Shown in pieces: positions 44,888 to 51,243 of a DNA stretch of 64,000 nucleotides (position 1 is its first letter; each line of letters opens with the position of its first letter). The notes beneath the pieces are model-generated. The model ran no database searches. It worked only from the letters and a program-made list of their open reading frames with translations, and was not told where the DNA came from. The stretch is from a virus. Where the stretch lies: the IMG/VR virus record IMGVR_UViG_3300042473_001368; one strand, 5' to 3'. A program made the position numbers and the translations under genes.

Positions 44888-45033
44888 GTCAGCGATGATC
44901 TAAATGATCGACGATGTCAAGGCCAGTACAAAGGTATTGGTTATCCGAATAGGATATTTTCTATTGTTCTTTGACAAGCAAAACACTTAACAGTCAGGGT
45001 TTCGGTCGCCTGACTTTAAAGAAAAGACCGAAC
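44888..45033 (+). ncRNA. Putative structured ncRNA ending in an H-type pseudoknot
   Basis: Follows promoter 44864-44881; three-way junction then AGTCAGG/CCTGACT stem whose loop pairs with GACCGAA. Confidence 0.6.
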
Positions 45034-45043
45034 ATTTTCAAAT

Positions 45044-45118
45044 GGACCGTTCGTCCAACGGATAGGACTAAGGCCTTCTAAGCCTCCAATCTAGGTTCGA
45101 ATCCTAGACGGTCTACCA
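45044..45118 (+). tRNA. tRNA-Arg(UCU)
   Basis: Cloverleaf, loop CTTCTAA, encoded CCA. Confidence 0.92.
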
Positions 45119-45234: not shown

Positions 45235-45837
45235 ATGTATTATACGGTTTATAAGATAACAAACTTAATTAACGGTAAAATATATGTTGGTGTTCATAGA
45301 ACATCCAACTTGAATGATTCGTATATGGGATCTGGTATGCTTATTAAGCAAGCGATTACCAAACACGGAGTTGAAAACTTTGAGCGTGAATACTTAGCGG
45401 TCTTCGATAACCCTGAAGATATGTATGACATGGAGTCGAAAATAGTAAATGAAGAATTTATTAACTCTCCATCTTCTTACAACCTTGCTACAGGCGGCTA
45501 CGGAGGCTGTCCTATATCTGGATCAAAAGGAGGCAAAAATTGTGCTGCAAAGTATAAGACGGACCCTGCTCTTGCAGAGGAACGATATTTTAGAAATAAG
45601 CTTCGTTTTGAAGAGTTAAAAAAGCAGGGAAAATGTTTAGGTGGTCCAAAATTTAAAGGGATGAAACACACCGAAGAGACAAAAGCAAAGATCGGGGCTA
45701 GTATTTCTAAAAAATGTCGTGGAGAAAACAACTCTCAGTTCGGGACAATGTGGATAACAGATAAGGTTACAAATAAAAAGATTTCAAAATTCGAACCTAT
45801 CCCAGAAGGCTGGGAAAAAGGTCGTATAATAAAGTAA
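45235..45837 (+). mobile_element. Free-standing GIY-YIG (Seg-like) homing endonuclease in the tRNA cluster
   Basis: YTVYKITNLINGKIYVGVH...YMGSG; NUMOD3-like KHTEETKAKIG; TATAAATA 45222-45229. Confidence 0.9.
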
Positions 45838-46312: not shown

Positions 46313-46387
46313 CGGTATGAAGCTTTAATGGTGAAGCGGTTGTCTGAAGAACAACATAAGACGATTCAAGCGCGTCCATGCCGGCCA
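46313..46387 (+). tRNA. tRNA-Phe(GAA), G73
   Basis: GTTGT-CTGAAGA-ACAAC, CCA; imperfect T-stem. Confidence 0.8.
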
Positions 46388-48334: not shown

Positions 48335-48600
48335 CTCTGTAATTCCGTAACATAGCATAGATGATAATGCGCCCGAAAGGGAGAAGGTGCTTAGACCACA
48401 TGAGGAAAAAAGAATTCAGAATTTCGGTGATCTGAATTAAAAGAAAACACCGTACACTTTTAATGCTGAAGTAGCCAAGCGTAATTGTGAGGGGTTCTAT
48501 TTTGCGTCCTATGCGTTTTCTCACCGTTTTAGCGACGATGCAAGTCAAGCCCAATGAGCGGGAAATAACGGATCAGGTTTGAGGTCATCCAGTAAAAACC
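48335..48600 (+). ncRNA. About 265-nt structured RNA with two pseudoknots
   Basis: CCC-GAAA-GGG; pseudoknot 48413-48455; GTGAG/CTCAC stem; pseudoknot 48570-48600. Confidence 0.55.
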
Positions 48601-48607
48601 TTATAAT

Positions 48608-49145: not shown

Positions 49146-49244
49146 CAGTATATAGTGTAGTGATAGCACAACAAATGCGAACTGTGAAAACAGATGTAGC
49201 TAATCAAAATGGTTGCGAGGGTTTGATTCCCTCTGTACTGACAA
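49146..49244 (+). ncRNA. Expanded tRNA-like RNA with extra GAAA-capped arm
   Basis: CAGTATA/TGTACTG acceptor, D-arm, 46-nt middle, GAGGG-TTTGATT-CCCTC, ends ACAA. Confidence 0.6.
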
Positions 49245-49342: not shown

Positions 49343-50770
49343 TTATCGACTGACCTCTTCCCAGTCCATTGATCCGTAAATGTCATCGCCATCTTTACTC
49401 GCTGCTACAGCTAGAGTTAATTCAAAGGATGTATTTGTAAAGCTATTTCTCTCAAGTTGGAACTTGAACAAAGCTTCTTTAAGAATATCAATAGTAGGAC
49501 TTCCTTGAGCATTGGAAGCAAGATATCCAGAAGCCAATACTCTACCGCCGGACAGACTAGTTCCATCTAGCTTGTATTCTACAGCGGAATTAGCGCTTCC
49601 AGCATCGGTCCATGTACCACCACTAGTTGTCCCTGAAGCAACTGCTCGCCAATTGTAAACTCCTGTACCTAATCCCATTATAGATAATGCAGTTAGAATA
49701 ACAATAGCATCTTGTCTTGCTGATTTTAAACGTATTGAAACTACAGGGTAAAAGGTTCCTTTTACTGTAAGATCTTTAGGAGCAGTTATTTCTGTGCCTA
49801 CTGCTTGTTGCAAGCCTCTTAGCTCATAGCCACCTTCAGATATAACTGTGCTACAAACTTGTTTTAATTTGCTCGGACCTGAAGTTGCAGCTTTATTTTC
49901 AATTTCATATCTGAGCGGTAGTGATCCTGTTGTAATGTATGTTGAATCAATTAGATTAGCGTGATGGAAGTAATGGCAAGGTACAAACTGACCATTGATA
50001 ACAAATCCTGTTCTCACAGTGCCTAATCCGAGCCATTCGATATCCGCGAATAAAATTTGAGCCTTTGTAATATCAAGGGTAAGTCCAGATGGTCCTGATC
50101 CATCTAAGCGATCTACATTCCATTGCGACTGTGGGATACGGTTAGATGAAAGCGAGCCAGAGGTAATGCTGCGTTCAACCATGTAAAGAGTGCTATCGTC
50201 TAACTCTAAGTAGATACCATTATCAACGCCAAAATAACCAACACGTTGTCTAAGATTTGTCTTAGCTTGGTTGAAGGTGAATGTATTTAACAGCTGTAAG
50301 CTCTTACCAGGTTGATATGCAAATACTTTAGTAGTTTCGCGATAAACTTTAGAACCGCTGAGAGCATCAACTTTTAGTTCGACGAGACCTTGAGTTTGAA
50401 TAAATTGCGCAGAAGCAGATGTTGATGTAGATCCTCCTGTTAATGTTGCCCAAAGGTTGTTATCTGCATATCTATGAGACGAGTCAAAAAGAGTCAATGG
50501 ACTTGATGTTCGTGTTCTTCCGAATGCGTCGCTTCCCATGTTTAAGTTGCCTGTATAGTTGCTTGTTGTATCATCAACACTCTTAACTAATACAGCATAC
50601 TTAGGATAGACCTCAACAGAACTTGTTGGAGCAACTCCGGTAGCGTTAGGTGAGTTGTATCGTGTAACAGATACAGCAGGGTATGTTGTATGATTTTTAA
50701 GTTCAACAAACTTACCGTATTCTGCGGTTTGATAATTTGCTACAACAACGGTATTATATTCACTCATCAA
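49343..50770 (-). CDS. Late virion-type protein, antisense within the tRNA cluster
   Basis: 475 aa beta-rich; DAFGRTRTSSPLTLFDS motif of phage structural proteins; late promoter 50774-50780. Confidence 0.7.
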   Translation of the reverse strand: MMSEYNTVVVANYQTAEYGKFVELKNHTTYPAVSVTRYNSPNATGVAPTSSVEVYPKYAVLVKSVDDTTSNYTGNLNMGSDAFGRTRTSSPLTLFDSSHRYADNNLWATLTGGSTSTSASAQFIQTQGLVELKVDALSGSKVYRETTKVFAYQPGKSLQLLNTFTFNQAKTNLRQRVGYFGVDNGIYLELDDSTLYMVERSITSGSLSSNRIPQSQWNVDRLDGSGPSGLTLDITKAQILFADIEWLGLGTVRTGFVINGQFVPCHYFHHANLIDSTYITTGSLPLRYEIENKAATSGPSKLKQVCSTVISEGGYELRGLQQAVGTEITAPKDLTVKGTFYPVVSIRLKSARQDAIVILTALSIMGLGTGVYNWRAVASGTTSGGTWTDAGSANSAVEYKLDGTSLSGGRVLASGYLASNAQGSPTIDILKEALFKFQLERNSFTNTSFELTLAVAASKDGDDIYGSMDWEEVSR

Positions 50771-51065: not shown

Positions 51066-51140
51066 TGCATGATGAGTCGCGCTCATCTGATCTGGAATAC
51101 GCAGGAGGACGTCCAGTAAGAATAATATATAAACCCTGCA
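51066..51140 (+). ncRNA. Hairpin plus H-type pseudoknot RNA
   Basis: GATGAG/CTCATC; CTGGA/TCCAG with loop GCAGG pairing to downstream CCTGC. Confidence 0.5.
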
Positions 51141-51151
51141 CAATTTTTAAC

Positions 51152-51233
51152 GGCTCCGTGGTGGAACGTATACACAGCAAACTTAAAATTTGCCGCCTTA
51201 GGGATTGCGATGTCGAAGTCGCCGGAGCCACCA
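51152..51233 (+). tRNA. tRNA-Leu(UAA), aberrant T-loop
   Basis: GCAAA-CTTAAAA-TTTGC, variable arm, CCA. Confidence 0.85.
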
Positions 51234-51243
51234 TTTTAACATT

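Follow-up and report, generated by a model that had tools for sequence, protein, structure and literature searches.

The 64,000-nt stretch of viral DNA analyzed here (hereafter the window) carries two copies of a short sequence that very probably represents a conserved, strand-specific family of RNA pseudoknots residing in phage tRNA arrays. The two copies had been pointed out in the initial annotation of the window, and both strings were confirmed in place, on the strand that encodes the tRNAs and inside the tRNA array. That annotation had also proposed that the motif is a conserved RNA module, and this proposal is borne out by 31 unique homologous sequences that show covariation in both stems of the pseudoknot. 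Judging from its position and from the sequence that follows it, we tentatively propose that the element is a mimic of the tRNA acceptor arm that would be released as a small RNA by the tRNA-processing machinery.

The window is DNA of a distant T4-type myovirus. Its proteins are a myovirus set, including tail sheath, baseplate wedge, and large terminase; the large terminase has only ~35% identity to its counterpart in any phage deposited so far, with top matches among T4-type phages of cyanobacteria, Pelagibacter, and rhizobia, and a DNA-level search among deposited phages found no close relative of the window. ARAGORN predicted 28 tRNA genes in the 64,000 nt, all on the plus strand between 45044 and 52629, and the Rfam tRNA model called two more that ARAGORN had missed (46313-46384 and 49146-49241, the second being 96 nt long), so that the array comprises 28-30 genes. 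At gathering thresholds, the Rfam matches in the window were all tRNAs. A further tRNA-like gene at 51152-51236, with a 7-bp acceptor stem, A73, CCA, a TTTT trailer, and an anticodon-like loop UAA (Leu), was called by neither program, and its T-arm looks unusual. The array also contains a gene for a GIY-YIG/NUMOD3 (seg-like) homing endonuclease (45235-45837), directly 3' of tRNA-Arg(UCU) and tRNA-Glu, an arrangement that recalls segB of T4 next to tRNA-Arg. Other non-tRNA genes were seen in comparable arrays. Related phages carry tmRNA genes of their own within or next to their tRNA arrays (L009:11436-11829, L023:12175-12568, and L096:11667-12045), those of L009 and L023 directly adjoining the homologue of a structural gene found in the window at 49343-50770, and Rfam identified Group I introns in tRNA-array loci of motif-carrying phages (L095:412-596, L177:853-1046, and L096:9470-9665).

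The two copies and their homologues

Both copies lie on the plus strand and share one layout of ~47 nt, described here in window coordinates and in columns of the alignment of unique members (A3). In copy 1, which is of flavor A, the arms of stem 1 (44992-44998 and 45009-45015; columns 5-11 and 22-28) enclose, in order, loop 1 (44999-45002; columns 12-15), an R-UUU sequence whose three U residues are invariant or nearly so, the 5' arm of stem 2 (45003-45007; columns 16-20), and loop 2, one purine nucleotide located where the two helices meet (45008; column 21), always G or A. Downstream of stem 1, a 10-nt loop 3 (45016-45025) with an invariant, A-rich core of 8 nt (columns 31-38) leads to the 3' arm of stem 2 (45026-45030; columns 39-43), and the element closes with a tail of the form N-xCA-WUUU (45031-45038; columns 44-51), which resembles the 3' end of a tRNA plus its trailer. 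Copy 2, of flavor B, has stem 1 at 48414-48420 and 48431-48437, with an eighth pair between 48413 and 48438, and stem 2 at 48425-48429 and 48448-48452; the A3 alignment places its A-rich loop 3 at 48438-48447 and its N-xCA-WUUU tail at 48453-48460.

Aligned without gaps, the copies differ at 10 positions of the 41-column core. Three compensatory pairs account for six of them, one pair lying in stem 2 and two in stem 1, the latter in agreement with the earlier observation that stem 1 differs in sequence and still pairs in both copies, while one of the 10 breaks a stem-2 pair that had been claimed. A covariance model built from the two copies, a check that the initial annotation had recommended, scored them at 76-78 bits, the next best match in 1.14 Mb reaching 18 bits. 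Since a loose pseudoknot descriptor alone finds ~30 sites in the window, the weight of the evidence comes from homologues. Folding of single copies was uninformative (Z-scores of -1.2 to -1.5); as the program is unable to draw the two stems together, its nested minimum-energy fold showed stem 1 for copy 1 and stem 2 for copy 2.

Homologues were collected by scanning IMG/VR and metagenomes with a pattern that fixed three parts, namely the core of the loop, the A-rich core, and the 3' strand of stem 2, and left stem 1 free; it matched 29 loci in IMG/VR and more than 120 in metagenomes. Matches without stem 1 were set aside as chance; those with it amounted to 45 instances, the two in the window included, and the alignment A3, to which L231, L232, and the second copy of L093 were added, holds 31 unique sequences. 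Scans with stem 2 left free revealed no divergent members beyond L231 and L232, and scans with the linker left free revealed neither variants beyond these two loci nor a member without the 8-nt A-rich core. The family is therefore narrow. The putative minor-groove A-triples that the initial annotation had proposed would be consistent with the invariance of this core, which held in the linker-free scan as well. When the 31 sequences were made into a model, each phage record gave one or two strong matches (64 bits or more), and no score fell between 34 and 64 bits; a complete genome of 184.5 kb contained one copy, and in three records a pair of copies lay 376 nt apart. Two sub-threshold hits, G010 (25 bits) and G027 (21 bits), are coding DNA and were rejected as members.

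Records of related phages were fetched through the 475-aa structural gene at 49343-50770, which is 58-80% identical among them, and several of these relatives have syntenic tRNA arrays. A simple pattern search and BLAST found the motif absent from 80 syntenic loci of the relatives, and the two-copy model (R1) likewise found no members in these loci or in five whole records, its lone match (L081, at E ~0.1) being coding DNA. Two complete genomes, with tRNA arrays or the same structural gene, are among these relatives without the element, which is therefore dispensable. Among 185,579 cellular genomes, a single match appeared, in a Bacteroidales MAG, and it was not genuine: it lies in coding DNA with no tRNAs nearby, lacks the 3' arm of stem 2, and was judged a chance match that gives no clue to the host.

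Such a patchy distribution among relatives is as would be expected of an accessory counter-defense function, and the element might conceivably be a decoy that binds a host nuclease or toxin, whether by type III, ToxI-like mimicry or by engaging an enzyme that attacks acceptor ends, with the tRNA array serving only as the platform for its expression and processing. Its size, its pseudoknot with an A-rich tract, and its phage origin liken it to the RNA units of type III antitoxins, and a tRNA-like end would suit enzymes that target the acceptor end. However, the copies are single and not arranged as tandem repeats, no ToxI-type model of Rfam matches them, and we know of no toxin partner; we consider a decoy role improbable.

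Pairing and covariation in both stems

Throughout the 31 unique members, stem 1 is 97.7% paired over 6-7 bp and includes three covarying pairs. Pair 6-27 is seen as U-A, A-U, and G-C, and pair 11-22 as A-U or G-C, neither ever being unpaired. The 5-bp core of stem 2 is paired in every member (100%). Within it, pair 20-39 splits almost evenly between G-C (16 members) and C-G (15 members), extending across the family the compensatory change, CGGTC/GACCG against CGGTG/CACCG, that the initial annotation had noted between the two copies. Pair 19-40 has undergone one change, from U-A to U.G, in the near-identical loci L231 and L232; there, the second base of the 3' arm is G, which pairs as U.G only if the tRNA strand is present as RNA. 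The longer stem 2 originally drawn for copy 1 stands in part: its 5-bp core is kept, whereas its two outer pairs are not conserved, since only 8 of the 31 members can form pair 15-44, and of the 22 that form pair 14-45, six have U.G. In each stem, the four inner pairs are invariant. The covariation score of the alignment was 0.304, as compared with 0.108 for column shuffles (0 of 500 reached 0.304) and no more than 0.075 for slid partners, in which 29-43% of positions were paired. RNAalifold, which cannot draw pseudoknots, recovered stem 1 on its own. Loop 1 spans 4 nt over the 5-bp stem 2, loop 3 spans 10 nt over the 7-bp stem 1, and loop 2 is 1 nt, lengths that, by general pseudoknot geometry, are able to span the respective grooves. 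Together, the pairing and the covariation in both stems support an H-type pseudoknot.

The two flavors of the element, A and B, differ at pairs 11-22 and 20-39 and at the adjoining columns 12 and 21, and all of these positions come together where the helices abut once the pseudoknot is folded. Both flavors are kept in one genome not only in the window, which has one copy of each, but also in the L093, L106, and L110 records. By a rough estimate (no formal test), the chance that four lineage-specific substitutions would give two complementary pairs is ~1 in 1000. As read from the alignment, the covariation of stem 2 is a single evolutionary split, that between the two flavors, plus one wobble change.

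Nucleotides that are unpaired and yet extremely conserved, flavor differences confined to the helix junction, and one or two copies per genome with both flavors retained side by side are features that a regulatory aptamer might also have. In such a case the element would be a riboswitch-like sensor or a put-like, polymerase-binding RNA for transcriptional read-through of the highly structured array, and the two flavors would represent two specificities; a few members do precede ORFs (L177 and L217). The preQ1-I aptamer (RF00522) shares the general layout of a hairpin, an A-rich tail in the minor groove, a pocket at the junction, and a 3' stretch complementary to the hairpin loop. The stem and loop sizes of the element differ from those of the preQ1-I class, however: its stems are longer and its loop 2 is 1 nt, and in addition it has no expression platform, has tRNAs downstream, and does not match RF00522 at E <= 10. 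In fact, no riboswitch or ribozyme model of Rfam matches even at that threshold, neither stem sequesters a terminator or ribosome-binding site in either window copy, and what lies downstream is tRNAs of at least eight identities or small ORFs, without a metabolic theme. The genomic context gave no support to preQ1 or SAM, the ligands that had been suggested as candidates, and an aptamer of this kind is unlikely.

The conserved block might instead act as DNA, either as a phage promoter for RNA genes or as a recombination or homing site at the boundaries of cassettes. Downstream genes, be they tRNAs or ORFs, begin at a nearly fixed distance of 10-17 nt; near-identical cores of 45 nt are embedded in unrelated flanks; a breakpoint falls within the tRNA that follows copy 2, 29 nt past its stem 2; and an endonuclease gene of the GIY-YIG type is present in the array. 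Compensatory changes in two interleaved helices would have no role in a duplex promoter, however, and one change keeps the pairing only as G.U on the tRNA strand. Moreover, the would-be -11 position of a sigma-70 promoter is variable (A, C, or G), tRNAs end 21-30 nt upstream in several loci, and the orientation of the element always follows that of the tRNAs. A consensus scan for sigma-70-type promoters found no plus-strand site at either copy. The best -35-like word of the family is 15 bp away, as compared with the 16-18 bp spacing of such promoters. A role at the level of DNA thus appears very improbable.

Position in tRNA arrays and the tRNA-like 3' end

All but one of the instances (44 of 45) lie inside phage tRNA arrays, and a tRNA on the opposite strand was found at none of the loci. 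In 26 instances, a tRNA predicted by ARAGORN begins 10-16 nt past stem 2; in the window, tRNA-Arg(UCU) (45044-45118, plus strand) starts 13 nt past stem 2 of copy 1. Some of the apparent exceptions in spacing are tRNAs that ARAGORN missed and Rfam located, at 13 nt in L096 and 12 nt in L231. Since the identity of the downstream tRNA varies (Ser(UGA), Ser(GGA), Met, Arg(UCU), Asn, Lys, Leu(CAA), Trp, and Thr), the element is a module rather than a part of one particular tRNA. On the other side, the interval from the preceding tRNA to stem 1 usually contains a small hairpin with a stem that covaries among flavor-A loci; in several loci, the preceding tRNA, complete with its own CCA, ends 21-30 nt upstream. 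Copy 2 is located 88 nt downstream of tRNA-Gly(UCC) and is preceded by a conserved noncoding segment (48340-48412, plus strand) common to L085, L180, and L231/L232, which contains a small hairpin whose stem differs between loci with its pairing kept. This segment and copy 2 may constitute one longer RNA of ~140 nt that ends in the pseudoknot.

Two loci separate the element from the tRNA that follows it. From 48326 onward, the window and L231 agree at ~99% across the pseudoknot and the first 16 nt of the next tRNA, and they are unrelated thereafter; those 16 nt (48466-48481, plus strand) are the beginning of a tRNA that is intact in L231 (L231:3660-3741, Rfam) and cut off in the window. The remnant is followed by ~125 nt of unassigned sequence, the two together occupying 48466-48607, with the recombination breakpoint inside the D-arm. 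At L217, the element lies between small ORFs, downstream of a metallophosphoesterase gene and with no tRNA within 13.5 kb, and its upstream neighborhood is the same as that of copy 1 in the window. The element is thus kept where its downstream tRNA has been cut off (copy 2) or where the array is absent (L217), and it is independent of that tRNA.

These positions bear on the possibility that the pseudoknot is a cis-acting part of the tRNA precursor, either capping the 3' end of the upstream RNA against 3' exonucleases after an RNase P cut, a role comparable to that of the MALAT1 triple helix upstream of mascRNA, or aiding processing by preventing mispairing between a leader and its tRNA. Most members do end 10-16 nt before a tRNA, with a spacer like an ordinary leader, and a hairpin and other conserved RNA are often found just upstream. 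An array of ~30 tRNAs, however, has only one or two copies of the element; the upstream RNA in many loci is a tRNA that has its own CCA and lies 21-30 nt off; the element persists with a cut-off tRNA or with none downstream; and a cap would leave the invariant loop sequences unexplained. A cis-acting role is conceivable, therefore, but on the unlikely side.

A different possibility is raised by the sequence that follows stem 2. In all members it reads N, x, C, A, W, T, T, T, in which the C, the A, and the three T residues are invariant or nearly so, and the CA lies exactly two nucleotides past the end of the helix in 31 of 31. The base before CA is C in a minority of members, A and G being commoner. 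Genuine tRNAs of the arrays have closely similar surroundings: among 341 unique tRNAs from loci L082-L232, 223 encode CCA, and in these the next four positions are A or T (89%), T (84%), T (89%), and T (80%), while the leaders of array tRNAs have A at N-2 in 80% and T at N-1 in 60%. So uniform a trailer, CCA-(A/T)TTT, together with the leader, suggests a processing signal shared across arrays. The signals that flank the element match those of the array tRNAs, with W-T-T-T after CA and, before stem 2, an invariant U, like the commonest N-1 base; the spacer ahead of the downstream tRNA also resembles an ordinary leader (N-1 T, N-2 A). In addition, the 5 bp of stem 2 and the 7 bp of stem 1, with a 1-nt junction, add up to 12 bp, as in the acceptor/T arm of a tRNA, and no equivalent of a T-loop was found at the far end of stem 1. 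The idea that stem 2 copies the acceptor stem of a resident tRNA was rejected, as no tRNA of the array begins with the same four bases; it resembles tRNA-Pro at C1:G72, G2:C71, and G3:C70 only.

The explanation that we favor, to which we assign a probability of about 0.4, is that the element is an acceptor-arm mimic that the enzymes processing tRNAs would set free, in the form of a small RNA that has a putative partner. The element would be transcribed within a polycistronic tRNA precursor, stem 2 would stack on stem 1 to give a helix of 12 bp, and the 3' strand would continue as N-xCA and then WUUU. Since this is the layout of acceptor stem, N73, CCA, and trailer in the neighboring genes, the element may fill the slot of a tRNA and be excised by the host enzymes that mature tRNAs. 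Its 3' end would be made as for tRNAs, RNase P would cut at the next tRNA, 10-16 nt downstream, and a further RNase P cut may fall in loop 1, immediately 5' of stem 2, the base at -1 being U. What results would be a stable RNA of small size, either alone or joined to the hairpin that usually precedes it, and its invariant loops and the flavor positions at the helix junction would bind the putative partner. Loop 1 of H-type pseudoknots is a known site of cleavage by bacterial RNase P when RCCA follows on the 3' side, and the enzyme also cleaves the tRNA-like ends of TYMV and TMV (PMC12710915); whether it targets pseudoknots in vivo has been called an open question (PMC12710915). Since the base before CA in the phage element is often not C, the RCCA contact with RNase P would be incomplete. 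Furthermore, since four base pairs of each stem are invariant in sequence, which a mere mimic of shape would not need, a specific partner or a tertiary structure is likely to be involved.

A more specific version of the acceptor-arm mimic, under which the element would be a pseudoknot naturally cleaved by bacterial RNase P and would function as a stand-in for the acceptor end, is doubtful and should be regarded as unlikely. In this version, RNase P would cut in loop 1, the 3' end would be trimmed to xCA, and an enzyme that reads acceptor ends would then be occupied or diverted, the two flavors corresponding to two targets. Candidate enzymes would be a synthetase, the CCA-adding enzyme, or a host defense nuclease or transferase aimed at the 3' ends of tRNAs.

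The window also contains a second element of the same layout and unrelated sequence (51071-51147, plus strand), which is shared by eight relatives without the main family. Its parts are a hairpin (51071-51087), a stem S1 (51092-51096 with 51112-51116), a potential stem S2 (51101-51105 with 51135-51139), an 18-nt, A-rich loop 3, and a tail ACA-WUUU. Covariation was seen at five of the six hairpin pairs and at one pair of the 5-bp S1, and the 5 bp of the potential S2 are invariant. Twelve nucleotides past this element lies the tRNA-like gene in the window, and tRNAs follow it in L009, L015, and L023. Since this second family has stems of 5 and 5 bp, a loop 2 of 6 nt, and a single nucleotide before CA, the 12-bp rule is not general. 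We also considered a general class of array pseudoknots abutting CA-WTT and rejected it: the enrichment (5.4% vs. 1.1%) comes wholly from the two families, the rest being at the level of chance.

Known RNAs and biological meaning

The pseudoknot had initially been left without a match to a named family, and our searches agree. Rfam 15 gave no match at either site at the gathering threshold or at E <= 10, where what appeared was noise of 17 bits or less; the models for preQ1-I, -II, and -III, SAM-II, fluoride, pistol, hatchet, twister-sister, ToxI, manA, wcaG, tRNA, and tmRNA in Rfam 15 matched neither site. We found no published description of the pseudoknot, although an unnamed candidate in a 2023 catalogue of phage RNAs with 10,006 entries (PMC10690425) could overlap it. 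Orphan structured RNAs known almost only from environmental T4-like phage sequence have precedents in manA and wcaG of T4-like cyanophages (Weinberg et al., 2010; PMC2864571), which differ from the element in both sequence and structure and whose Rfam models do not match it.

Several other RNAs are similar in part. The 5' half of the pistol ribozyme is alike, in that a hairpin loop pairs downstream past an A-containing linker, and pistol, too, is often of phage or environmental origin; the phage element, in contrast, has neither P2 and P3 nor a cleavage-site module downstream, and the Rfam model does not match it. The tRNA-like ends of TYMV and TMV, and the pseudoknot-RCCA substrates of RNase P, share with it an H-type pseudoknot with a single-stranded tail, like that of a tRNA, at the end of the 3' strand. 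Unlike the ends of TYMV and TMV, however, its tail is internal to the transcript of a DNA phage, the third-last base is often not C, analogues of the D-, anticodon-, and T-arms are missing, and the sequences show no similarity. The species 1 and species 2 RNAs of T4 (rnaC and rnaD) are likewise non-tRNA RNA genes in the tRNA cluster of a T4-type phage, near tRNA-Arg(UCU) and a GIY-YIG seg gene, and both they and the phage element have tRNA-like 3' ends; indeed, the two T4 RNAs are stable, and rnaD runs into an encoded CCA. They differ in length (119-139 nt) and in their unrelated sequence and are not built around the pseudoknot, and a search for homology to rnaC and rnaD found none. To our knowledge, the T4 RNAs are still without a function after decades.

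Phage tRNA arrays are usually annotated as tRNAs and spacers, and here one type of spacer is a strongly selected, structured RNA that carries the end signals of a tRNA without the body of one. Even without a function, the alignment is ready for use as an RNA family and would improve the annotation of environmental phages. If the processing model holds, the element would be a natural case of RNase P and the tRNA-end machinery acting on a pseudoknot, in the form of an RNA of ~45 nt fit for structural work, and tRNA arrays would be a production line for RNAs other than tRNAs, a notion that bears comparison with the puzzle of the T4 species 1 and 2 RNAs. If the element is indeed a mimic of the acceptor end, it would answer the question posed in PMC12710915 of pseudoknots as RNase P targets in vivo, and tRNA-like structures would extend from plant RNA viruses to bacteriophages.
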